IMG/VR virus record: IMGVR_UViG_3300050821_004478
Length of the DNA stretch: 64,000 nt
Direction: 5' to 3' (one strand)
From: a virus
A program made the position numbers and the translations under genes. A model generated the notes under the pieces. It did not search any database and was not told the DNA's origin. It was given only the letters and a program-made list of their open reading frames with translations. Shown here in pieces: positions 16,656 to 63,411 of the stretch (position 1 is the first letter of the stretch; each line of letters opens with the position of its first letter).

Positions 16656-17089
16656 TTTTTCTTGTTACTTTTACCACCGGGGCCATTACAGTTATTACAA
16701 AGAACTTGATACCCTTTGGGATATCTGTTTTTTCTGAGAAAATTTAAGAGAGCACAGCTAGAAATTCTTCTGCCGTTCTTTCCCAGATGTTTATAACCAT
16801 TGCCTTTGATGTGATCTAGTTGTAGAAAGCCAAAATAAATTGTTCGGCACCCTAGGCACATGCATTTCAATTTACCTTTACTATAGTATGTAAGCACATC
16901 TCGACGCAATCGCGACGCAGCTTCTCGCACTGATCTATTTATAATTTTTCTGTATTGGGGATTTTTTCTGCGATCTCGCATGCGCAAACGGCCATATCTT
17001 CTGCTGCGATAAAGGACACAGTCATCACAATATTTCTTAGTGTTGTGATAACTTCTTCTGATTGATTTTCTGCATCTTAAGCATTCCAT
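16628..17089 (-). CDS. HNH homing endonuclease
   Basis: Motif LQLDHIKGNG...VLCNNCN preceded by Cys pairs. Confidence 0.7.
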   Translation of the reverse strand: MECLRCRKSIRRSYHNTKKYCDDCVLYRSRRYGRLRMRDRRKNPQYRKIINRSVREAASRLRRDVLTYYSKGKLKCMCLGCRTIYFGFLQLDHIKGNGYKHLGKNGRRISSCALLNFLRKNRYPKGYQVLCNNCNGPGGKSNKKKCPMSGRPH

Positions 17090-42386: not shown

Positions 42387-43073
42387 CTATTGTCCGAGAA
42401 CTTCCTGATCTTCAAGGCTAGAGTAACATTTGCCGTTACGCTTTTCCCAAAGAGAGCGGAAATATCTTGCGGAGATTGCATTGGGTGATGGTACCCCAAA
42501 AATTTTGTGGCACTGTACTTCTGTGATGATCTCTTTCTCGACAAGTTGGATTGCTACCGTGCGCCAACCGCGCGACTCTTCCCCATCGGGAATGCCGTGG
42601 CTGTCTAGTTTCAGTACGCTCCACTCCCACATTGAGGGAACATCCATGAAACAGACTGCGCGTAATTTCTTAGATTGACCTGGGGGAGAACACCATAGTC
42701 CAACGGTCGGGATTCCGCCGCGCCCTATCCAGCCAACGTCTGTGATAACGGTCTTCAACCCGTTCGCGTGCAACTTGTCGACGAAATTTCGGGTACTGAT
42801 CTTGTTGATCTGGCGGGCCGCTTTGTTAGTCAGGTCTTCCTGATCGTCCCACTTGTAGGCCGCTGCCATTCGGTTCGAGATGTCTTTCTCGGCGGCGAAC
42901 GATTCCTTCACGAACGACTTGTAGTCGTTGGGCCACTTGACCCAATTCGGAGTGCCGTCCGCCAACATCTGGCGAATGGCTTGATGCGTCGCATCTACAT
43001 CGTGGTGCTCATTGAATGGATTCTCAACGTCGGGGCCTTTGATGAAAGGCTGGTCCGGAGTTTGGATGGTCAT
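42387..43073 (-). CDS. hypothetical protein
   Basis: 228-aa ORF immediately downstream of the GIY-YIG gene. Confidence 0.5.
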   Translation of the reverse strand: MTIQTPDQPFIKGPDVENPFNEHHDVDATHQAIRQMLADGTPNWVKWPNDYKSFVKESFAAEKDISNRMAAAYKWDDQEDLTNKAARQINKISTRNFVDKLHANGLKTVITDVGWIGRGGIPTVGLWCSPPGQSKKLRAVCFMDVPSMWEWSVLKLDSHGIPDGEESRGWRTVAIQLVEKEIITEVQCHKIFGVPSPNAISARYFRSLWEKRNGKCYSSLEDQEVLGQ

Positions 43074-43087
43074 TGGTATTGTCCTTT

Positions 43088-43684
43088 TTATTGTGCTGCT
43101 CGACGACGCTGCTGTGATGCTCTCATCTTCTGCTTCGTTTCTTCTGATGCCTTCTTGCCTTTGTGGGAATCGGACATTCGCTGGCGCGCTTCGTCAGTAC
43201 GTTTTGCGCCGACATGAACGGCCATCAGTTTCTGAAAATTGTCTTCGGACATCTTCCTACCGAGAGCGTATTTGTTACCCATGCTACGCTGAGATAACTT
43301 CTGTCGATGGCTCTCTGGCATCACCAGTCCGATACGAGACGCGGACATCTTGGCGCGGGTTTCTTTGCTCATCTTAACTCCCAGAGAGCCGTTCCCGCCG
43401 TGCGTAATGTTATACCCCTTCTTGGGGTCCGTGGTGTCCCATGATTTAATCAAGCCAATTTCGTACAGGTCCATCTCTTGCTTTGTTCCGACAATAACAA
43501 GAGGCTTCACCTCAAATCCGTCAGCGCCGTACTTTCGAATCGCGCGATAGAGAAGGCGCTTACCTTGATAGCCCGTTTCGGCTAACCAAACATTCCTGCG
43601 CCAATAGGACTCCAAATCTATACCGGCGTGTTGTCCAACGTATTTCTTGCCGTTCTTCTTGTTTGTAATCAAATAGACTATCAT
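43088..43684 (-). CDS. GIY-YIG homing endonuclease (I-TevI-like, NUMOD3-type repeats)
   Basis: Motif VYLITNKKNGKKYVGQ. Repeated ...E(T/A)R.KMS.S..G modules. Confidence 0.8.
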   Translation of the reverse strand: MIVYLITNKKNGKKYVGQHAGIDLESYWRRNVWLAETGYQGKRLLYRAIRKYGADGFEVKPLVIVGTKQEMDLYEIGLIKSWDTTDPKKGYNITHGGNGSLGVKMSKETRAKMSASRIGLVMPESHRQKLSQRSMGNKYALGRKMSEDNFQKLMAVHVGAKRTDEARQRMSDSHKGKKASEETKQKMRASQQRRRAAQ

Positions 43685-43742
43685 TTACTCTCCATGAAAG
43701 AGTGATTGAGGGGTGTGTTCATGGCACACCCCATCAATCTTA

Positions 43743-43771
43743 ACCTTAACGCGCGTTGCAACGCTTGTCAA
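43743..43771 (-). promoter_or_regulatory. sigma70-like promoter (TTGACA-N17-TAAGGT) with GTTGCAAC palindrome in spacer
   Basis: Minus strand reads TTGACA agcGTTGCAACgcgcgt TAAGGT, upstream of the GIY-YIG gene. Confidence 0.5.
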
Positions 43772-43774
43772 GGG

Positions 43775-44005
43775 AAAAGTTTTCACTCGTTACTGAATAG
43801 CAGGCCACTTGTTACCGCTTTCGCGGGGCCGGTCATTTCTGCCGACCTCTTACAGTTTTGTTTCCTGTAAGAGCAGACTATCGCATCGCCCCGAAGGGCG
43901 TTCGCTCGCTTAGTCGTTCACGGTGCCTTTCGGCTTCCGCCTTGTTAGCATTTCAGCTTCCAAGTCAATCAGAGCAAATTATCTACTAGCAGATTACGCT
44001 GCTAG
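43775..44005 (-). ncRNA. group I intron-like ribozyme core, copy A
   Basis: On the minus strand: P2 CTAGCAG/CTGCTAG; P3 TTGCTC/GAGCGA; R-like element GUGAACGACUAAGCGAG (43905-43921); P8 CGCCC-UUCG-GGGCG; S-like element GAUGCGAUAGUCUGCUC (43871-43887); three further hairpins. Confidence 0.6.
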
Positions 44006-44069
44006 GAGTCCATATTGAACGCTATCAATGTAACGAATACGCTGCGTGTTGACGCCAGTTGCGGGCGGC

Positions 44070-44312
44070 AAAGTCACGGTTTGGTGAAACTTGTAACTGC
44101 ACCCAATCTTGTTAACACTTTCGTGTACCGAATCATTTCTGTTCGGTTCATACGGTTTGTTTCCCGTATGTTCAGACTATTGCATCGACCTATTGTCAGA
44201 AGGTCGTTTTCTCGCTTAGTCGTTCACGGTGCCTTTCGGCTTCCGCCTCGTTGCCGTTTCAGGTTTCGAGTCAATCAGAGAAAATTTACTGTGGCCTATG
44301 CTGTTAAGCCAC
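44070..44312 (-). ncRNA. group I intron-like ribozyme core, copy B (overlaps 3' end of capsid ORF)
   Basis: On the minus strand: P2 GTGGC/GCCAC, containing the capsid stop codon; P3 TTTCTC/GAGAAA; an identical 37-nt core including the R element (44211-44227); S-like element GAUGCAAUAGUCUGAAC (44170-44186). All stems covary with copy A. Confidence 0.6.
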
Positions 44313-45231
44313 CGATGGTAGATACGGGGTCGAAGCTCGATGCCGGTGCGTCTGTGACCACTCGACAATCGATTGTCTTCCAATCGCCGTCATCGAGGTC
44401 TGTGTCGCCCGGGACCTGAAGCCACACACCGATCATCGCGTAATTGCCGAAGACGTATGTGCGGTAGCCGATCTTGCCGGTGCCGCTGTAGTTAGCGGTG
44501 GTTGTGACGAACGGAGTCTGCATGAAGCCGATGTTGGTGCCCGGTAGAACAATGACCTTGTTCTGGTCGCTGCCTGCCATCGCATCAAACTTCTCCATGT
44601 TCTCGTACTTCCACAAATCCGCGATGCTGTTGTTCACAGTCGTGGCGTTGTAGATGTCGCCCAACACGTTGGGGCTGATTGCGCCTAGGAACATACCGCG
44701 CTTGCAAGGCAACACGTTCTTTGAAACAAGCTGCTGCTTCAATTCACGGATGGTGCCAAGGTCAAGCGTGAAAGGTGACGCCAGCAAGCTGCTCTGGTTA
44801 ACCTGTGAGTCCACGCCGGACGCGCTGTCAGCAACTGCGCTGTACAGTTCGCTGATCGATTGCCCAGCTTGGTAGCCGAGTTCGACTGCGCTGTTGCCGA
44901 CCAACTCGTCAATCGCCGCTGCAATCGCGAACGAAGAAAAGTTGGCATAGTTGTTCCACTCACCGATCTGAGCCGGTGAGCTAAGCTGGCTGATGACTTC
45001 CGGGTTGCCCACGGTGCCGTCAGAATTCTGGATGATGTCACCAGATAGCGTGTTGTACTGGAAAAACGTACGGTTCACGCCCATGTGGAGACCCTGCACG
45101 CGACGTTCAGCAGCGCCAACGAATGCGTTGGTGTTGCCCTTCAAGTTCGGGATGAGTTCCTTATCGAAGATGATCGCTTGCGCGGTTAATACGTTTGCTA
45201 CGTTTGACCCTGATGGGTTCGGACCACTCAT
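44296..45231 (-). CDS. major capsid protein candidate; 3' end may be interrupted by a group I intron
   Basis: 311-aa ORF directly after the scaffold-like gene in a portal-scaffold-capsid order. The stop codon lies inside the P2 hairpin of intron-like copy B. Confidence 0.6.
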   Translation of the reverse strand: MSGPNPSGSNVANVLTAQAIIFDKELIPNLKGNTNAFVGAAERRVQGLHMGVNRTFFQYNTLSGDIIQNSDGTVGNPEVISQLSSPAQIGEWNNYANFSSFAIAAAIDELVGNSAVELGYQAGQSISELYSAVADSASGVDSQVNQSSLLASPFTLDLGTIRELKQQLVSKNVLPCKRGMFLGAISPNVLGDIYNATTVNNSIADLWKYENMEKFDAMAGSDQNKVIVLPGTNIGFMQTPFVTTTANYSGTGKIGYRTYVFGNYAMIGVWLQVPGDTDLDDGDWKTIDCRVVTDAPASSFDPVSTIGGLTA

Positions 45232-57435: not shown

Positions 57436-57510
57436 TGGTTGCCTGATTTGGATTCGGACCAAAACTTCCGCTTTCAGAGAGCGGCGTGCTACCGGTTGCA
57501 CTATCTGGCA
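57436..57510 (-). tRNA. tRNA-Gln: tRNA-Gln (anticodon CUG)
   Basis: D arm GUGC/GCAC; anticodon arm CCGCU-CUCUGAA-AGCGG; T arm UUUGG-UCCGAAU-CCAAA; CCA encoded; one A-A mismatch in the acceptor. Confidence 0.8.
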
Positions 57511-57608
57511 ATTGAAATAAAAGTCGTCCCTACTAAGGCGATGGGGTCCTTTTCCTCCGAGGTCACATCGCGCTGCTTCCTCAAAGTACCAGACCGACGA
57601 CCCGAGAT
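57511..57608 (-). ncRNA. unassigned structured spacer between tRNAs (candidate processed stable RNA)
   Basis: 98 nt with no cloverleaf. Terminal pairing GGGUCGUC...GACGAC and an internal GAGG...CCUC hairpin. Confidence 0.25.
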
Positions 57609-57684
57609 TGGTTGCTCATGAAGGACTCGAACCTTCATCTTCGGATTCAAAGTCCGAGGTCCTCCCAATTAGACGAGAGAGCAA
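57609..57684 (-). tRNA. tRNA-Gln: tRNA-Gln (anticodon UUG)
   Basis: Anticodon arm UCGGA-CUUUGAA-UCCGA; T arm GAAGG-UUCGAGU-CCUUC; CCA encoded; 1-2 mismatches at the base of the acceptor. Confidence 0.75.
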
Positions 57685-57691
57685 TAGAAAC

Positions 57692-57765
57692 TGGTCCCGA
57701 GCCACCGAGTCGAGCGGTGTCTTCTCCGTCTTCAGCGGAGGGTGCAACCCTTACACCTGCAGGGG
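57692..57765 (-). tRNA. tRNA-Phe: tRNA-Phe (anticodon GAA), non-canonical
   Basis: Anticodon arm CUCCG-CUGAAGA-CGGAG; T arm CACCG-CUCGACU-CGGUG; acceptor CCCCUGC/GCUCGGG has two central mismatches; CCA encoded. Confidence 0.55.
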
Positions 57766-57766
57766 A

Positions 57767-57952
57767 TTAAATAAGTTCAATAGTAAATGCGTGTGGGTTT
57801 GAGAACTCACCATACTTACAGGTGACTTTCAGTTTTCCCAAATCAAACTGTGTGAACGTAAACTCATGAGGCAGCAAGTTATGAGAAATGAATTGTTGTT
57901 TCAGTTCTCGAATCAATGAGACGTCGATTTTATCTGCCTGCTCTTGAGTCAT
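57767..57952 (-). CDS. small hypothetical protein (61 aa)
   Basis: Start trimmed to the MTQEQ ATG with a GAAGGA RBS. The longer ORF would run through tRNA-Ser. Confidence 0.45.
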   Translation of the reverse strand: MTQEQADKIDVSLIRELKQQFISHNLLPHEFTFTQFDLGKLKVTCKYGEFSNPHAFTIELI

Positions 57953-57967
57953 TGTTGTTCCTTCAAA

Positions 57968-58054
57968 TGGCGGAGAGCCAAGGAGTCGAACCCTGTCACG
58001 CGTGAGCGTGTCTCTGTTTTCAAGACAGTTAAGCACCGTTGCTAGCTGCCCTCC
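57968..58054 (-). tRNA. tRNA-Ser: tRNA-Ser (anticodon UGA), type II
   Basis: Acceptor GGAGGGC/GCUCUCC; anticodon loop CUUGAAA; long variable arm CACGC-UCAC-GCGUG; T loop UUCGACU; CCA encoded. Confidence 0.85.
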
Positions 58055-58197
58055 GTAAAATTTGCCCGTTACAGATGAGTCCTCCTCGTGAAGGTCATCA
58101 CCCTAAGCTCCCACGGGTCCGAGGCATGATCGCGTCGCCCGGGTAACGTCCTTCTAGTCCGGCAGCACCACGCGATGGAACAACATCAAGATTAAAT
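58055..58197 (-). ncRNA. unassigned structured spacer between tRNAs (candidate processed stable RNA)
   Basis: 143 nt with no cloverleaf and no ORF. Contains a 7-bp helix AUCGCGU...ACGCGAU. Confidence 0.3.
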
Positions 58198-58283
58198 TGG
58201 CGGAACGAGAAGGAGTCGAACCTTCACGACCTCTCGGTCGCAAGTTTAGCAAACTTGTCCGGCTACCGTTTCGGCACCGTTCC
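58198..58283 (-). tRNA. tRNA-Ser: tRNA-Ser (anticodon GCU), type II
   Basis: Acceptor GGAACGG/UCGUUCC; anticodon arm CAAGU-UUGCUAA-ACUUG; variable arm CGACC-GAGA-GGUCG; CCA encoded. Confidence 0.85.
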
Positions 58284-58284
58284 A

Positions 58285-58332
58285 TGTCAACTTATAGATT
58301 GACAAATAACTCTCGTTTGTCAACTTATAGAT
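58285..58332. repeat. 15-bp direct repeat TGTCAACTTATAGAT x2 (period 33) between tRNA genes
   Basis: Exact copies at 58285-58299 and 58318-58332. Confidence 0.8.
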
Positions 58333-58343
58333 GTACAAAATTT

Positions 58344-58420
58344 TGGCGGGAAGCGACGGACTCGAACCGCCACCCTTCGGGTTGGAGCCGAAGATGCTGC
58401 CACTAACACTTGCGACCCGC
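58344..58420 (-). tRNA. tRNA-Trp: tRNA-Trp-like (anticodon CCA) with aberrant acceptor/T geometry
   Basis: Anticodon arm CUUCGG-CUCCAAC-CCGAAG; T arm GGCGG-UUCGAGU-CCGUC. The 5' strand GCGGGUCGC pairs with the 3' strand GCUUCCCGC only with two internal mismatches. Confidence 0.5.
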
Positions 58421-58426
58421 TGAAAC

Positions 58427-58514
58427 TGGTGGATAGTGAACGACTCGAACGTTCGAAGCCCACATGGGGCGCGTGTTTTACAGACACGAGCAATTGCCGC
58501 TATGCGAACCATCC
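58427..58514 (-). tRNA. tRNA-Tyr: tRNA-Tyr (anticodon GUA), type II
   Basis: Acceptor GGAUGGU/ACUAUCC; anticodon arm CGUGU-CUGUAAA-ACACG; long variable arm; T arm GAACG-UUCGAGU-CGUUC; CCA encoded. Confidence 0.85.
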
Positions 58515-58522
58515 ATGAAACT

Positions 58523-58596
58523 TGGAGCACCACAACTGAATCGAACAGTTGCCTCTGCCTTACGAAGGAAGTGTCCTGCCACTGGACCAGCAGTGC
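58523..58596 (-). tRNA. tRNA-Thr: tRNA-Thr (anticodon CGU)
   Basis: D arm GUCC/GGAC; anticodon loop UUCGUAA; T arm AACUG-UUCGAUU-CAGUU; CCA encoded. Confidence 0.8.
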
Positions 58597-58604
58597 TCAA
58601 AACT

Positions 58605-58844
58605 TTACTTTACGTGCGCGCGAAACCATGCTGCTAGACGCGCTGGCCACCATGAGGGCGGCTGCGGCGGCTTCTGCTTTGCAATTGGCGTGTTGAGCAT
58701 TCCGTTGTAGGAAGGCATAAGCACGCTGCCGTCGTCGTAATAGATCGGACCATTCACGGCTTTGTCGCCGTACTTGAATGAGCCTGCGGGAAACGGATTG
58801 CTCTGGCTACCGTCTGGTACTGGCACTACTGGCGTTGTTGCCAT
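58605..58844 (-). CDS. small hypothetical protein (79 aa)
   Basis: Start trimmed to the MATTPV ATG with an AGGAGA RBS. The longer ORF would run through tRNA genes. Confidence 0.45.
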   Translation of the reverse strand: MATTPVVPVPDGSQSNPFPAGSFKYGDKAVNGPIYYDDGSVLMPSYNGMLNTPIAKQKPPQPPSWWPARLAAWFRAHVK

Positions 58845-58860
58845 GCGTTCTCCTAAAAGT

Positions 58861-58935
58861 TGGAGCGAGATACCAGAATCGAACTGGTGCCTAAACCTTG
58901 GCAAGGTCTCGTACAAACCACTATACGAATCCCGC
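58861..58935 (-). tRNA. tRNA-Gly: tRNA-Gly (anticodon GCC)
   Basis: Acceptor GCGGGAU/AUCUCGC; anticodon loop UUGCCAA; T arm ACCAG-UUCGAUU-CUGGU; CCA encoded. Confidence 0.85.
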
Positions 58936-58942
58936 TTAAAAT

Positions 58943-59018
58943 TGGAGCAAAGTGATGGATTCGAACCACCGTGTCGAAGGTACAAGCTTCGCATACTAGG
59001 CCGCTGTATGAACCATGC
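58943..59018 (-). tRNA. tRNA-Thr: tRNA-Thr (anticodon UGU)
   Basis: Anticodon arm CGAAG-CUUGUAC-CUUCG; T arm GGUGG-UUCGAAU-CCAUC; CCA encoded; U4-U69 mismatch. Confidence 0.8.
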
Positions 59019-59020
59019 TC

Positions 59021-59094
59021 TGGAGCCAAGACGTGGAATCGGACCACGGCCTCCTCCTTACCAAGGAGGAATTCTGCCACTAGACTATCTAGGC
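59021..59094 (-). tRNA. tRNA-Thr: tRNA-Thr (anticodon GGU)
   Basis: Anticodon arm CCUCC-UUGGUAA-GGAGG; T arm CGUGG-UCCGAUU-CCACG; CCA encoded; U4-U69 mismatch. Confidence 0.8.
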
Positions 59095-59103
59095 TCAAAA
59101 CTT

Positions 59104-59451
59104 TTACTTCAAAGAAATCTTTGATGCCTTCAGCTTCAGAAAATTTCTGATAACCTGAATGCCTTCGACAACGGAGACGCCAGCTAGGAATGCATATCCT
59201 GCGCCGAGGTTATGAGCCGCGATTACCGCTCCGACGCCCAGGACCGCTACCGCGCTAAGGAACGCGCTCAACGACTGGCCAATCTTTGCAAAAAGAAACT
59301 TCATGACCGGGTTGCCTTCCACAAAGCCGTGCTGCAGACCGATCATGGTGGTGTAAGCATCACCCAACACCGCGACGAGACTTGTAAAACTTAGTGCAGC
59401 CAAGAGAACCGTCTGTCCTGCTGTCCATGTGCCTACTGGAGGTGTGAACAT
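59104..59451 (-). CDS. membrane protein (DUF5658-like, ...GFVEGNP... motif)
   Basis: Start trimmed to the MFTPPV ATG. Four hydrophobic helices. The longer ORF would run through tRNA-Gly. Confidence 0.5.
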   Translation of the reverse strand: MFTPPVGTWTAGQTVLLAALSFTSLVAVLGDAYTTMIGLQHGFVEGNPVMKFLFAKIGQSLSAFLSAVAVLGVGAVIAAHNLGAGYAFLAGVSVVEGIQVIRNFLKLKASKISLK

Positions 59452-59466
59452 TAATTCTCCTAAAAA

Positions 59467-59540
59467 TGGAGCGAACTGCGAGACTCGAACTCGCTTCTCC
59501 GGCTTGGAAGACCAGGGCACAACCTATATGCCAAGCTCGC
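59467..59540 (-). tRNA. tRNA-Gly: tRNA-Gly (anticodon UCC)
   Basis: Acceptor GCGAGCU/AGUUCGC; anticodon loop CUUCCAA; T arm GCGAG-UUCGAGU-CUCGC; CCA encoded. Confidence 0.85.
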
Positions 59541-59548
59541 TCAGAAAT

Positions 59549-59635
59549 TGGTTGCAGGGGCCAGATTCGAACTGGCGGTGTGCTTTCGCATCGGGCTTAT
59601 GAGACCCGCGACATCGGCCACTAGTCGACCCTACA
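59549..59635 (-). tRNA. 87-nt type II (long variable arm) tRNA with CAU anticodon
   Basis: Acceptor UGUAGGG/CCCUGCA; A73; 11-nt D loop; anticodon arm CGGGU-CUCAUAA-GCCCG; about 15-nt variable arm containing UGC-GAAA-GCA; T arm GCCAG-UUCGAAU-CUGGC; CCA encoded. Confidence 0.7.
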
Positions 59636-59699
59636 ACTGAAACTTTATTTGCTCATCACCCAGATCACATACACGACTGAGATGATGACGCCCAGAACG

Positions 59700-59942
59700 T
59701 TACAGACTGTTCGCGTCAGCGCCATTTTCTGATCTAAGCTGAGCGACATTCTTTTCGTCCTTTTTCTTGTTGCGACCGTCATACCACTTTCGTCGCAATC
59801 CCAAATATTCGAGTTGAGCCTTCAGACTCTCCTCCGCTGCGACTCGCATCGCACGATCATCTTTCCAGATGCTGATTAGAAAGTATAAGGCTACTAAGTC
59901 GACCGCCAGTGCTGCAACCGAGGCTGCGTCTGCTATCGTCAT
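59700..59942 (-). CDS. small membrane-anchored protein
   Basis: 80 aa with an N-terminal TM helix followed by a charged helix. Confidence 0.45.
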   Translation of the reverse strand: MTIADAASVAALAVDLVALYFLISIWKDDRAMRVAAEESLKAQLEYLGLRRKWYDGRNKKKDEKNVAQLRSENGADANSL

Positions 59943-59964
59943 AGATCACCGATCAGGACGAAAA

Positions 59965-60040
59965 TGGTTCCCCAGGTTGGATTCGGACCAACGACCCCTT
60001 GCTTATCAGGCGAGTGCTCTAGCCACTGAGCTACCGGGAA
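59965..60040 (-). tRNA. tRNA-Ile: tRNA-Ile (anticodon GAU)
   Basis: D arm UAGCUCAGUGGCUAGAGC; anticodon loop CUGAUAA; T arm GUUGG-UCCGAAU-CCAAC; CCA encoded. Confidence 0.85.
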
Positions 60041-60048
60041 ATTGAAAC

Positions 60049-60363
60049 TTATTTACGTTGAAGTCTTGCGTACCAAAGAAGCTGATGTTGATAGTCTTCT
60101 TCAGCGGTGCAGAAACTCCAAGGCCAAAACTTTTCGAGTGTCGGGGGGAACTGCAACGTCTGCTTCCCGTCGCGACCCCAAGACCACACATCGTTGAAAC
60201 TTGCTTCCAGGCGTTTCGGGATGACTAGTTCTTCCCAATCTTTGCAATCCCTGATTGCCTGCTCTTGCGCCCGACGCCAGCAGCGGCGAGCAACCATCTT
60301 GTCGTGCGCCGCTGATCTCACGCCTGTGATGGCAGAGTACGGCTTGCGATAACTTTTTGACAT
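60049..60363 (-). CDS. hypothetical protein
   Basis: 104-aa ORF between tRNA genes. Confidence 0.5.
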   Translation of the reverse strand: MSKSYRKPYSAITGVRSAAHDKMVARRCWRRAQEQAIRDCKDWEELVIPKRLEASFNDVWSWGRDGKQTLQFPPTLEKFWPWSFCTAEEDYQHQLLWYARLQRK

Positions 60364-60413
60364 TGAAACCTCCGTAGGTTTACCTAATACATGTCATGTT
60401 ATCTCCTTAAAAT

Positions 60414-60486
60414 TGGTGGACCGATGGGGAGTCGAACCCCTTTTTCTCGGTGCAAGCGAGACGTATACCCGTCCTACTCTCAGCCC
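60414..60486 (-). tRNA. tRNA-Ala: tRNA-Ala (anticodon UGC)
   Basis: Acceptor GGGCUGA/UCGGUCC with G3-U70; anticodon arm UCUCG-CUUGCAC-CGAGA; CCA encoded. Confidence 0.8.
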
Positions 60487-60492
60487 ATAAAG

Positions 60493-60567
60493 TGGTAGCG
60501 TAGCAGAGACTCGAACTCTGTCTTCGTGCTTGAAAGGCACGATGCCTAACCCATAGCAGACTGCGCC
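60493..60567 (-). tRNA. tRNA-Glu: tRNA-Glu (anticodon UUC)
   Basis: Anticodon arm CGUGC-CUUUCAA-GCACG; T arm CAGAG-UUCGAGU-CUCUG; CCA encoded; C5-A68 mismatch. Confidence 0.8.
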
Positions 60568-60576
60568 ACTGAAAAT

Positions 60577-60663
60577 TTATTCGCCCTTCGGTGCCTTGAA
60601 GAACCAAGCAGCGAGCAGAAGCACAAACAGTGTGCCTCCGATGATCTCAAATATGACTGTCAT
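60577..60663 (-). CDS. possible 28-aa membrane peptide
   Basis: Translation MTVIFEIIGGTLFVLLLAAWFFKAPKGE. Weak RBS. Below the ORF-track cutoff. Confidence 0.3.
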   Translation of the reverse strand: MTVIFEIIGGTLFVLLLAAWFFKAPKGE

Positions 60664-60671
60664 CTCTATTC

Positions 60672-60875
60672 CTATTGCACAATCACTATCGGTGCCGGAA
60701 GTCTGAATGGCTTCCCCAACAGCGCCCCGTGTGGTCCTACTTTCATGAAGAGATCAGCGGAGCCATCCTTGTAAACATACAAGTGCCAACCGCGCGCTCT
60801 CTTATAATTTAGAACCGGATAGACATACGTGCCGTCTCCTTGTTCTTCAATCTCGATACAGTGATTTGCGATCAT
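60672..60875 (-). CDS. hypothetical protein
   Basis: 67-aa ORF. Confidence 0.45.
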   Translation of the reverse strand: MIANHCIEIEEQGDGTYVYPVLNYKRARGWHLYVYKDGSADLFMKVGPHGALLGKPFRLPAPIVIVQ

Positions 60876-60925
60876 AATGTTCTCCGTTGCTCAACGAGCA
60901 TATTATTCTACGGTGCTTCGAACTT

Positions 60926-61001
60926 TGGTAGCGTCGACGGGATTCTAACCCGTGTGGCCTGATTGAGAATCAGGAATCCTAGAACACTAGATGACATCGC
61001 C
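60926..61001 (-). tRNA. tRNA-Glu: tRNA-Glu (anticodon CUC)
   Basis: Anticodon arm CCUGA-UUCUCAA-UCAGG; T arm ACGGG-UUAGAAU-CCCGU; CCA encoded; A5-A68 mismatch. Confidence 0.75.
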
Positions 61002-61139
61002 ACAGAAATCGGTCTTCCTCATCGGCGCGTCCCAGCCGAATCGCCCGAGGGCTAGCCTCGTGCCTTTCTCACGCGCGATACTCAGCACGCCTCGCCCTTA
61101 GTGGACGTCTCACACGGTAGATGCCCGTGATCGGAAGTT
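61002..61139 (-). ncRNA. unassigned structured spacer between tRNAs (candidate processed stable RNA)
   Basis: 138 nt. Closing helix CUUCC...GGAAG, nested helices CGAGG[CGUGC...GCACG]...CCUCG, and hairpin CACGG-GCAUCUA-CCGUG. Confidence 0.3.
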
Positions 61140-61225
61140 TGGTGCGCTAGGTGGGAGTCGGACCCACAATCCCTTTCGGGCCGGGGGTTTTAAGTCCCCT
61201 GCGTATGCCATTCCGCCACACGCGC
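61140..61225 (-). tRNA. tRNA-Leu: tRNA-Leu (anticodon UAA), type II
   Basis: D arm GCGG..CGC; anticodon loop CUUAAAA; variable arm GGCCC-GAAA-GGGAU; A73; CCA encoded; two acceptor mismatches. Confidence 0.7.
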
Positions 61226-61230
61226 AAAGA

Positions 61231-61305
61231 TGGTGCCTCGTGATGGAATCGGACCATCGTCTCGACTTTATAAGAATCGGGCCTTCGCCATTAGACGAAC
61301 GAGGA
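61231..61305 (-). tRNA. tRNA-Ile: tRNA-Ile (anticodon UAU)
   Basis: Anticodon arm CGAUU-CUUAUAA-AGUCG; T arm GAUGG-UCCGAUU-CCAUC; CCA encoded; U1-C72 mismatch. Confidence 0.7.
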
Positions 61306-61314
61306 ACTGAAAAT

Positions 61315-61390
61315 TGGTACGAAGCAGAGGAATCGAACCTCTCTAGCCAGTGTGTAGGACTGGTGCATAGTGCCTATCTGCCAGCCTCGT
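61315..61390 (-). tRNA. tRNA-Val: tRNA-Val (anticodon UAC)
   Basis: Acceptor ACGAGGC/GCUUCGU; anticodon arm CCAGU-CCUACAC-ACUGG (C at position 33); T arm AGAGG-UUCGAUU-CCUCU; CCA encoded. Confidence 0.75.
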
Positions 61391-61397
61391 ATTGAAC

Positions 61398-61817
61398 CTA
61401 CCTATCCAATCGGAGTTCTTTGCAATAATGCTGTAGTCCAGTCCAACGTCCTTTGTCGACATTGAAGTTTCCGATTGGTTCAAACTTTTTGTGACCGACA
61501 CACCATGACATGCCTTCTGGCGCAATTTTTCTTTTAGATACCCCACCATGATAAATATGCTGACGGTTGCAATCCAAATGAGAGAATGCGACGTTGTCCA
61601 TATCCCAGAACAACTCGGCAGAGCGACCTTCCCACGGTCTGACGTGCTCTATGCTCAGTTCATCCACCGTCTCGATTTCTTTTTCACATCGAGCACATAT
61701 ATTGTCTCGGTACTTTTTCAATTGCCTGAATAGAACCATCTTACGAAGTCTATTCATCGCGGTGCCTTGTGGCATCCCGAGAGTCTCGATGACTCTCTGT
61801 GTTCTTGCGTTTGACAT
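61398..61817 (-). CDS. HNH homing endonuclease (paralogue of 63419-63799)
   Basis: Motif ...CARCEKEI...LSIEHVRPW...NVAFSHLDCN. Confidence 0.7.
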   Translation of the reverse strand: MSNARTQRVIETLGMPQGTAMNRLRKMVLFRQLKKYRDNICARCEKEIETVDELSIEHVRPWEGRSAELFWDMDNVAFSHLDCNRQHIYHGGVSKRKIAPEGMSWCVGHKKFEPIGNFNVDKGRWTGLQHYCKELRLDR

Positions 61818-61858
61818 AGTCGTTAGCCTCTGGCTGTAGATTTATGTGTTTGTAAAAT

Positions 61859-61934
61859 TGGTGCATCGCTCCAGGCTCGAACTGGAACTCCGTCGCTTAA
61901 AAGGCGAGTACGCTGCCGCTCGCGTCCGCAATGC
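61859..61934 (-). tRNA. tRNA-Lys: tRNA-Lys (anticodon UUU)
   Basis: Acceptor GCAUUGC/GCGAUGC; anticodon loop CUUUUAA; T arm UCCAG-UUCGAGC-CUGGA; CCA encoded. Confidence 0.8.
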
Positions 61935-61944
61935 ACAGAAAATT

Positions 61945-62019
61945 TGGTGGACTCGGTGGGATTCGAACCCACACCAAATCGGTTAAGAGCCGAGTATGCA
62001 ACCGTAACACCTCGGGTCC
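61945..62019 (-). tRNA. tRNA-Lys: tRNA-Lys (anticodon CUU)
   Basis: Acceptor GGACCCG/CGAGUCC; anticodon loop CUCUUAA; T arm GUGGG-UUCGAAU-CCCAC; CCA encoded. Confidence 0.8.
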
Positions 62020-62026
62020 ACTGTAG

Positions 62027-62353
62027 TTTTGGTGACGCTATAATCAGGATTCTGTCGAGGACGAACATTCCTCTCAAGTCGCTTTCGCGAAGCACGCTAC
62101 CCGCTCGTCATCCCGCTCAACAAGCGGTCAGAGCCTATTTGCGCTTGCACGAGTGTGGAGTTCGCTGACTCGAATGGCTCTTAAAGGCACCTTAACTGAG
62201 TTAGTGTGCTCTCAAGGGCACCAGCCCTTACCCGAACGCTTACGCGCCCCGCATCTTCCACGGCACTCTGTTGAGACGTGTCCTGAATTTCCTCGACGCG
62301 CCTTGGAGTATTTCACCGAGGGCTTACCGCCGCGTTCGTCTACGCTACCAAAA
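62027..62353 (-). ncRNA. rnpB: RNase P RNA (bacterial type A-like, reduced)
   Basis: On the minus strand: P1 UUUUGGU/ACCAAAA; P2 GACGAAC/GUUCGUC; P4 5' strand GAGGAAAUUCAGGA with a bulged U, pairing with the 3' strand ACAGAAUCCUGAUUA. Conserved blocks GGGUAAGGG, AACUCCAC..GCAAGCGCAAAUAGG and CGACAGAA occur in the canonical order. Confidence 0.8.
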
Positions 62354-62458
62354 TCTTCGGCATAGTTTTTCGTTAACCGCGCCGCGCCAAAACGATTCGA
62401 CTTGTCTACTTCGATTGCCGCGCGCTGGGCGAGACCTCGTGAATAGGGCCGACAAACT

Positions 62459-62532
62459 TGGAGCGCGAAGTGTGAATCGAACACACGATGGGTGTTTTGC
62501 AGACACCTAACTTACCACTTGTCGATTCGCGC
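62459..62532 (-). tRNA. tRNA-Cys: tRNA-Cys (anticodon GCA)
   Basis: Acceptor GCGCGAA/UUCGCGC; anticodon arm GGUGU-CUGCAAA-ACACC; T arm GUGUG-UUCGAUU-CACAC; CCA encoded. Confidence 0.9.
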
Positions 62533-62577
62533 AAACTTGACAATCAAGGTCTTAACCTTGACAAAACTGGTCGCTCA

Positions 62578-62664
62578 CCAGAGAGTCGAACTCTGACGCC
62601 CTTTCGGGCGGCGGGTTTTGAATCCGCTGCGTCTGCCGGTTCCGCCAGCAAGCGAATATTTACT
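62578..62664 (-). tRNA. tRNA-Leu: tRNA-Leu (anticodon CAA), type II
   Basis: Acceptor CGCUUGC/GUGAGCG; D arm GCGG..CGC; anticodon loop UUCAAAA; variable arm CGCCC-GAAA-GGGCG; A73; CCA encoded. Confidence 0.85.
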
Positions 62665-62705
62665 CGTGCTGTAAATATGGCACGAGGATTAAATTTGGAA
62701 GGCCA

Positions 62706-62780
62706 CCGGAGAGTCTAACTCCGCTCTGGACGTTCGTAGCGTCCCGTCGTGTACGATGGACTAGCAGCCCTCTGAAAATT
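62706..62780 (-). tRNA. tRNA-Arg: tRNA-Arg (anticodon ACG)
   Basis: Anticodon arm GGACG-CUACGAA-CGUCC; T arm CGGAG-UUAGACU-CUCCG; acceptor contains several G-U pairs; D loop lacks GG; CCA encoded. Confidence 0.7.
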
Positions 62781-62855
62781 GAATTCCCCGTTGCGCGGAA
62801 CAACGCGTCTCGCAACCTTTAAGTGCCGACGTTGCGCCCACGGCACGGAAAAAAT

Positions 62856-62930
62856 TGGAAGGCCCGGGGAGAATTCAACTCCCATAGTCGCCTTAGAAGT
62901 GCGACGTCCTGTGCATTGAACGACAGGCCC
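62856..62930 (-). tRNA. tRNA-Arg: tRNA-Arg (anticodon UCU)
   Basis: Acceptor GGGCCUG/CGGGCCU; anticodon loop CUUCUAA; T arm GGGAG-UUGAAUU-CUCCC; CCA encoded. Confidence 0.75.
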
Positions 62931-62937
62931 ACAAAAT

Positions 62938-63022
62938 TGGTTGCCCCTGAGAGACTTGAACTCTCAATCCCTTCCGGGCGCTTGTTTCTAAGACAAGTGC
63001 GTATTCGTTCCGCCAAGAGGCA
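62938..63022 (-). tRNA. tRNA-Leu: tRNA-Leu (anticodon UAG), type II
   Basis: Anticodon arm CUUGU-CUUAGAA-ACAAG; variable arm CCC-GGAA-GGG; T arm GAGAG-UUCAAGU-CUCUC; A73; CCA encoded. Confidence 0.85.
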
Positions 63023-63252
63023 ATAGAAATCCGAGGAGCTACTTATCAACGCGCGGCCCCCGGACGCGCTTTGGGTCCCTGTTTACAGAGACCGAGAGTG
63101 CATGCCCCTTACCAGTCGACGAGGCCACGCGCGCGGGAGCTACCCGGCTGTGTTTGACTCTCTGTTGTACAACATCGTTCCCCTGCCTGCCTCCGTTGCT
63201 TAGCCTCTTAGTTGAGGCCAGCTAACACAGTGGTGCCGTTCGAGGAAAGTTT
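63023..63252 (-). ncRNA. unassigned ~230-nt structured RNA candidate with RNase P S-domain-like motifs
   Basis: The minus strand contains ACAACAGAGAGUCAAAC, a GC-rich hairpin region, UGGUAAGGGG, and UCUCUGUAAAC. No cloverleaf and no ORF. Confidence 0.35.
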
Positions 63253-63327
63253 TGGCAGAGATAACGGGAATCGGACCCGTACTTTTTCCGTGACAGGGAA
63301 ACGTCGTTACCAACTGACCCTATCTCT
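63253..63327 (-). tRNA. tRNA-Asp: tRNA-Asp (anticodon GUC)
   Basis: Anticodon arm UUUCC-CUGUCAC-GGAAA; T arm ACGGG-UCCGAUU-CCCGU; G73; CCA encoded. Confidence 0.85.
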
Positions 63328-63335
63328 GCAGAAAT

Positions 63336-63411
63336 TGGCTCCATCCCTCCGACTCGAACGGAGACCCTCCTCATTAACAGTGAGGTGTCCTACCAATTGG
63401 ACCAGAATGGA
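63336..63411 (-). tRNA. tRNA-Asn: tRNA-Asn (anticodon GUU)
   Basis: Acceptor UCCAUUC/GGAUGGA; D arm GUCC/GGAC; anticodon arm CCUCA-CUGUUAA-UGAGG; T arm CUCCG-UUCGAGU-CGGAG; CCA encoded. Confidence 0.9.

Follow-up and report, generated by a model that had tools for sequence, protein, structure and literature searches.

Introns in phage capsid genes have been described before: in mycobacteriophage LittleE the splicing of such an intron was demonstrated by reverse transcription PCR and N-terminal sequencing, and a further case has been reported for the lactococcal phage Tuc2009 (PMC3706429). Short group I introns (~206 nt) without an open reading frame (ORF) of their own occur together with stand-alone endonuclease genes in the Jug jumbo phages, where about half of the predicted splices were confirmed by metatranscriptome reads (PMC12880540). 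Pairs of an intron and a free-standing nuclease are moreover the subject of work on collaborative homing, which is reviewed in PMC3984707; the pairs that this review cites from Zeng 2009 and from Bonocora & Shub 2009 are the psbA intron of cyanophage S-PM2 with the nuclease F-CphI and the nrdA intron of Aeh1 with mobE-type nucleases. F-CphI is a nuclease of the Endo VII type (PMC6083498). Here we analyse a stretch of 64,000 nucleotides (nt) from the IMG/VR virus record IMGVR_UViG_3300050821_004478 (hereafter the window), and within it a gene that is annotated as encoding a capsid protein of 311 amino acids (aa). The record that contains the window is the complete genome of an uncultured phage (101.7 kb, with terminal repeats), and all features of the locus lie on the minus strand. 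Very probably, this major capsid gene is split into three exons by two group I introns (203 and 213 nt), which are paralogous and ORF-less, and the GIY-YIG endonuclease gene downstream of it stands free of both introns and may be their partner in homing in trans.

As in LittleE and Tuc2009, a group I-type intron lies within the gene of the major capsid subunit, and as in LittleE it was recognised through uninterrupted homologues of the same length and through its border bases, a U on the 5' side and a terminal G. However, the LittleE intron measures 819 bp and contains a LAGLIDADG-like ORF, whereas the introns described here are about 200 nt long, lack an ORF and come two per gene, and their splicing is predicted. 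With the Jug phages the locus shares small ORF-less introns that split essential genes, next to stand-alone HNH or GIY-YIG genes; the lineage is nevertheless a different one, the host genes differ (terL, nrdD and DNA polymerase in the Jug phages), and the Jug introns were found by published subtype models, whereas the family described here is missed by Rfam 15. The likeness to S-PM2 and F-CphI lies in the relatives of the phage, which hold Endo VII-type nucleases (F-CphI-like, PF02945) in the slot downstream of the capsid gene. Unlike in the S-PM2 and Aeh1 systems, the host gene is a capsid gene, it carries two introns (with at least eight insertion sites among the relatives), at least two nuclease families alternate in a single slot, and cleavage of the insertion site is a prediction. 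What seems to be new is the density of insertion sites, the retargeting by a change of the guide sequence, the presence of two nuclease families in one slot and the invisibility of the introns to Rfam.

Exon-intron layout of the capsid gene

The annotated 311-aa ORF runs from 45231 to 44296 (minus strand) and ends at a TAG at 44298-44296. Uninterrupted relatives (90-97% identity) run on beyond the ...STIGG of this protein with WCSYKFHQTVTLPPATGVNTQRIRYIDSVPAIQ and a stop. Comparison with these relatives gives the following layout, in which the bit scores refer to R1, a covariance model built from the intron alignment described below.

45231-44307, minus strand: exon 1 (925 nt), ending in ...GGU GGC U, the final U being the first base of the Trp309 codon; junction set by the uninterrupted homologues
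44306-44104, minus strand: intron B (203 nt), inserted after nt 925 of the coding sequence (CDS), with P1, P3-P9, P9a and P9b and no P2; terminal G at 44104; 203.6 bits with R1
44103-44018, minus strand: exon 2 (86 nt), the final two bases of the Trp309 codon followed by CSYKF...RYIDSV (residues 310-337)
44017-43805, minus strand: intron A (213 nt), inserted after CDS nt 1011; terminal G at 43805; 227.2 bits with R1
43804-43790, minus strand: exon 3 (15 nt), CCT GCT ATT CAG TAA, i.e. PAIQ and the stop

Removing 44306-44104 and 44017-43805 in silico yields a CDS of 1026 nt for a protein of 341 aa that ends in ...STIGGWCSYKF...DSVPAIQ and agrees with about 45 uninterrupted IMG/VR relatives in length, in its C-terminus and at both junctions. 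A homologue search over 5.8 billion proteins found 277, and their modal length is likewise 341 aa. The translation of exon 2 fits residues 309-337 of the 341-aa homologues; in exon 3 the last four residues and the stop are identical to those of all uninterrupted relatives, and the only DNA changes are synonymous. Distant homologues (25-60% identity) can be aligned through residues 338-341, Y312 is nearly invariant in the family, and the sole isolate among the relatives, Tunturiibacter phage Tunturi_3 (37% identity), has a 343-aa 'major head protein' with the same tail. Intron-free alleles were found among the relatives for both insertion sites. For intron B, only the join given yields the conserved W309 and at the same time places a U ahead of the intron and lets the intron end in G. 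At the other end of the gene, the DNA 3' of exon 3 is homologous to the post-stop DNA of the intron-free relative L005, and we therefore place the end of the capsid gene at 43790. Taken together, these comparisons establish the exon structure, and on sequence grounds the real subunit has 341 aa, the 311-aa 'capsid protein' of the deposited record being cut short by read-through into an intron.

An earlier note on this DNA had suggested that the annotated C-terminus may be intron read-through and the capsid gene split, and the spliced CDS bears this out by restoring the 341 aa seen in the uninterrupted relatives. It had also stated that homologues stopping where the 311-aa product stops would speak against this; the opposite is the case, as the relatives continue past STIGG and the modal length exceeds that of the annotated product. 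An ATG-less frame on the minus strand, which ends at a TAA at 43996-43994 and which the note considered as a possible segment of the capsid gene, turned out to be exon 2. The coordinates given there for the 311-aa ORF, the TAG, this ATG-less frame, its TAA and a 228-aa ORF further downstream all hold.

The identity of the protein was approached through the uninterrupted, 96%-identical homologue P0005, for which an AlphaFold2 model based on a 70-sequence alignment reached a predicted local distance difference test score of 86 and a predicted template modelling score of 0.79. The top Foldseek matches of this model are the HK97-fold capsids of N4, Moo19, GP4 and Pan3, with E-values down to 3e-13. 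Sequence searches with the capsid protein gave no match in Pfam, a weak one to PHROG 1357, and in a PDB sequence profile search spurious kinesin matches only. In the model, residues 306-319 and 331-336, which are mostly encoded by exon 2, form confident beta-strands. The modelling thus identifies the protein as an HK97-fold major capsid subunit in which the tail is likely to matter.

Truncated forms are also present in public databases. Many entries for relatives of this protein measure 308-328 aa, among them P0003, P0004, P0016, P0020 and P0022, which finish in short unrelated tails, e.g. ...GGWCSSTSLKLAA; such entries are intron read-through truncations and not real variants.

Group I structure of the two introns

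An identical core of 37 nt occurs twice in the window, where shuffled sequences lead one to expect none. We aligned 27 non-identical copies of the element, two from the window and 25 from relatives, and this alignment supports P3, P4, P5, P6/P6a, P7, P8, P9, two more 3' hairpins and the P3/P7 pseudoknot. Over the 48 pairs of eight helices, 95.9% of the cells are paired, and compensatory changes occur in 40 of the 48 pairs. A pairing as high did not arise in any of 500 shuffles, and sliding the 3' partner by 1-3 columns left only 35-44% paired. Minimum free energy folds of the single sequences recover the nested helices, with z-scores of -4.7 for intron B and -3.6 for intron A. Searched over the whole phage genome, model R1 finds exactly two copies. 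The family has neither P5abc nor P7.1/P7.2. The helices at the 5' ends of the two introns are as follows.

44291-44312, minus strand: P1 of intron B, exon GUGGCU (44312-44307) paired with the guide GGCCAC (44296-44291); 6 bp, the splice-site pair being a U.G wobble
44020-44016 with 44012-44008, minus strand: P1 of intron A, GUU/CA (slash at the splice site) paired with UGGAC
44005-43999 with 43992-43986, minus strand: P2 of intron A, CUAGCAG paired with CUGCUAG; the loop holds the read-through TAA

In intron B the read-through TAG (44298-44296) overlaps the guide sequence, and its G pairs with the splice-site U. Because of this overlap the hairpin is P1 and not P2, as which it had previously been taken: in it, the last six bases of the exon pair with the internal guide. 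The location of the TAG within a hairpin (6 bp) was correctly seen, as was the expectation that P1 and the 5' splice site of copy B lie within the final codons of the ORF, where the exon bases 44312-44307 pair with the guide; the distance to P3 (44284-44278), stated as 12 nt, measures about 11 nt from the TAG. For copy A the earlier note had placed the TAA inside P2 and some 15 nt before P3. This description is accurate, the hairpin being a true P2 of 7 bp (44005-43986) with the TAA in its loop and P3 (43978-43972) lying 15 nt past the TAA.

At both insertion sites the guide changes together with the exon. Relatives with an intron at the site of intron B have the exon sequence GUGGAU with the guide GUCCAC, and at the site of intron A the relative L081 has the exon AUU with the guide GGAU, each of them a compensatory change. 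Both introns end in G (44104 and 43805), and in both the splice-site U takes part in a U.G wobble. Shifting the junction of intron A upstream by one base, to the position after nt 1010, would leave the protein unchanged but put a U-A pair in place of the wobble; we disfavour this because the splice site would then leave the U.G pair. The alignment and the paired exon and guide changes demonstrate the group I architecture and the pairing of guide and exon. As far as fold and guide pairing can be read from the bases, both inserts are members of one family of ORF-less group I introns.

Genes downstream of the capsid gene

Past the capsid stop, a promoter-like element is followed by the endonuclease gene and by a conserved neighbouring gene.

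43743..43771, minus strand: promoter-like element before the GIY-YIG gene, TTGACA and TAAGGT separated by 17 nt that include GTTGCAAC
43088..43684, minus strand: GIY-YIG/NUMOD3 homing-endonuclease gene (198 aa), starting 105 nt past the capsid stop
42387..43073, minus strand: 228-aa ORF, a neighbouring conserved gene starting 14 nt past the GIY-YIG stop

The product of the GIY-YIG gene belongs to PHROG 314 (homing endonuclease, E = 1e-34); it matches NUMOD3 with 35.2 bits, over the cut-off, and the GIY-YIG domain with 21.6 bits versus a Pfam cut-off of 22.6. Introns of 203 and 213 nt have no room for a nuclease ORF. Moreover, exon 3 lies upstream of the GIY-YIG gene, and therefore the endonuclease is located outside the intron. 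Homologues occupy the same slot beside intronless capsid genes in the relatives L015, L037, L053 and L054, those of L015 and L053 being 68-81% identical to the gene of the window. Since L015 and L053 have such homologues beside capsid genes that no intron interrupts, the GIY-YIG gene is, by this comparison of genomes, a free-standing and not an intron-encoded gene.

Within the promoter-like element, TTGACA-N3-GTTGCAAC (43755-43771) is repeated at 49838-49822 (minus strand), before an HNH gene near the portal gene; 0.13 matches would be expected by chance. A similar element lies past the capsid stop of L005, before an Endo VII-type gene. A strict sigma-70 scan did not call the element before the GIY-YIG gene. 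The TTGACA-N17-TAAGGT arrangement may function as a promoter.

The 228-aa ORF has no match among the Pfam and PHROG families. In nearly all relatives, whether or not their capsid gene is interrupted, a full-length homologue comes directly after this gene or after the nuclease slot. The product of the ORF probably belongs to the head or serves in head completion. Its start 14 nt past the endonuclease stop had been noted before, together with the idea that it might supply the missing segment of the capsid protein. Full-length homologues after intron-free and intron-bearing capsid genes alike exclude it as a capsid exon and mark it as a separate conserved gene. Elsewhere in the window, a cluster of 20 tRNA genes lies at 57439-63411 (minus strand), with scores above the Rfam gathering score.

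Introns and nucleases among the relatives

With model R1 we found 44 introns in 33 of 80 relatives. They form one family that varies mainly in P1 and P2, and within the final ~110 nt of the capsid gene they occupy at least eight insertion sites, namely after CDS nt 917/918, 925, 931, 934, 941, 945, 1001 and 1011. Three loci fall outside those resolved by the junction script described below; by the RNA model, two of them, L043 and L067, have two introns each (their second sites being approximate) and the third, L059, has one. In L032/L033 (3790-4000, 2949-3165), L079 (3770-3999) and L080 (3626-3815, 3830-3996), additional members of the family are located around codon 28-30 of the capsid gene and 5' of that gene. 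Junctions in the relatives were located by a script that accepted only introns preceded by U and ending in G, and a frame-restoring solution to 341 aa exists in every resolved relative.

Between the capsid stop and the homologue of the 228-aa ORF, 21 relatives have an empty slot (70-150 nt), whereas in 43 the slot holds a GIY-YIG gene, a gene of the Endo VII type (PF02945, F-CphI family) or, at two loci, an unclassified ORF. Endo VII-domain ORFs of 130-176 aa were located in the slot at L005:5126-5524, L010:5322-5720, L013:3000-3422, L065:4461-4922 and others; the slot ORFs of L055 and L058 (~215 aa) gave no Pfam match. Introns are present in none of the 21 relatives with an empty slot versus 26 of the 43 with an occupied one (Fisher p = 1e-6). 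Nucleases occur both with and without introns, and closely related genomes display all combinations but one, the presence of an intron beside an empty slot. Traced on an exon-1 DNA tree, intron state has changed at least 18 times and slot occupancy 13 times. This association of introns and nucleases resembles collaborative homing, of which it is suggestive.

Alternative explanations

Several of our observations weigh against the reading that two functional introns share this locus with a partner nuclease. Among 13 phylogenetically independent pairs about five go in the same direction and none in the opposite one, giving a median p of 0.06 in the sign test; because this phylogenetically corrected test is borderline, we regard the link between nuclease and intron as suggestive. 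In L015, L037, L053 and L054 the GIY-YIG gene stands beside a capsid gene without any intron, and L079 combines a GIY-YIG gene with only a 5' intron. In intron A, P1 is short (3 exon bp and 2 intron bp) and P10 weak. Rfam release 15 gave no group I match (RF00028, Intron_gpI) with either the gathering score or E <= 10 as threshold, also when 531 nt were scanned; the matches returned under E <= 10 were due to chance (sR16, mir-567 and DUF805b). Finally, the universality of the U and the G at the intron borders among the relatives is partly due to construction, because the script imposed this rule.

The explanation that survives best beside our own is that the introns splice but have nothing to do with the adjacent nucleases. 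Reverse splicing or ordinary recombination would account for their spread, and shared ancestry for their co-occurrence with the nuclease genes. We do not favour this explanation, but we consider it a serious one: apart from the borderline test and the nuclease-bearing relatives that are intronless, it can draw on the few introns located elsewhere, around codon 28-30 or 5' of the capsid gene, and on the occurrence of the same intron family in ribonucleotide reductase and portal genes. It accounts less well for the complete lack of introns in the 21 genomes with an empty slot, for the fact that every informative independent pair goes in the same direction, and for the crowding of at least eight sites within ~95 nt beside the nuclease slot; there is also experimental precedent for exactly such a pairing (PMC3984707).

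Far less probable, and in our view very unlikely, is that the elements are decayed, non-splicing insertions and that the phage makes a truncated 311-aa capsid protein or is defective. Such decay would fit the failure of Rfam to recognise the elements and the shortness of P1 and P10 of intron A, but every core helix is intact in both copies, with compensatory changes over the 27 copies, and the exons are in frame and unmutated, even the 15-nt exon 3. The tail of 30 residues that would be missing includes the nearly invariant Y312 and confident strands, the genome record is complete, with terminal repeats, and inserts are present in 33 of 80 relatives, each of them restoring the 341-aa frame where it can be resolved. 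Hardly credible, finally, is a large intron A that spans the GIY-YIG ORF, with the last capsid exon beyond 43088, e.g. in the 228-aa ORF: GIY-YIG ORFs are common in mobile group I introns and the next ORF begins only 14 nt after the nuclease stop, but PAIQ and a stop come right after the terminal G of the full-length model match (43805/43804), the DNA past this stop is homologous to the post-stop DNA of an intron-free relative, the GIY-YIG gene has the same place beside the uninterrupted capsid genes of L015 and L053, and the homologues of the 228-aa ORF are full-length, with their own starts, in all lineages.

Possible mechanism

For a capsid gene with two ORF-less introns and a free-standing nuclease gene, we propose the following course of events. 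Both introns would splice themselves out of the late transcript, each finding its own 5' splice site by pairing its guide with the end of the upstream exon, and a transcript spliced at both introns would yield the full 341-aa subunit. If intron B remained unspliced, the product would be without the conserved last 33 residues, from the Trp of codon 309 onward; if intron A remained, QYGLLAA would stand in place of the last four residues PAIQ. We infer that in a mixed infection the GIY-YIG or Endo VII-type nuclease may cleave, close to their 3' ends, capsid alleles that lack a neighbouring nuclease gene. Introns lying within the target would confer immunity and would be co-converted with the nuclease gene by repair, i.e. 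by collaborative or trans homing.

Spread and significance of the intron family

A scan of IMG/VR for exact matches to the motif of the intron core returned at least 119 viral contig stretches (L087-L165 among them). Among the matches listed, the upstream ORF could be extracted in 63 cases, and 42 of these ORFs encode major head proteins (PHROG 283, 1357 and 9953); the remaining upstream ORFs among these matches include ribonucleotide reductase and portal genes, and several of the contigs listed carry 3-4 copies of the intron. In the families PHROG 283 and 9953 the intron lies ~24-33 codons ahead of the capsid stop. In MW202674.1, a P22-like coat gene is interrupted by a related intron (L002:2971-3196, ~16848-17073) that scores 94 bits with R1; the annotation of this record shows two 'P22 coat protein' CDSs and a 'hypothetical protein' located within the intron. 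Tentatively, the family might be a very small group I lineage, invisible to Rfam and specialised on phage major capsid genes, that retargets by a change of the guide alone. An arms race with GIY-YIG and Endo VII-type nucleases parked downstream might drive this, the introns serving as portable immunity in co-infection; we put this picture forward as one that we would at present sooner doubt than assert.

Gene callers and Rfam-based pipelines overlook this intron family, and therefore the capsid genes of many uncultured phages are probably mis-called. With one intron family, many neighbouring sites and two nuclease families, the locus is a rich natural system for the study of collaborative homing. 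Each virion requires hundreds of copies of the capsid protein; efficient splicing of both introns would therefore be necessary, and this need makes splicing a possible control point of late gene expression.

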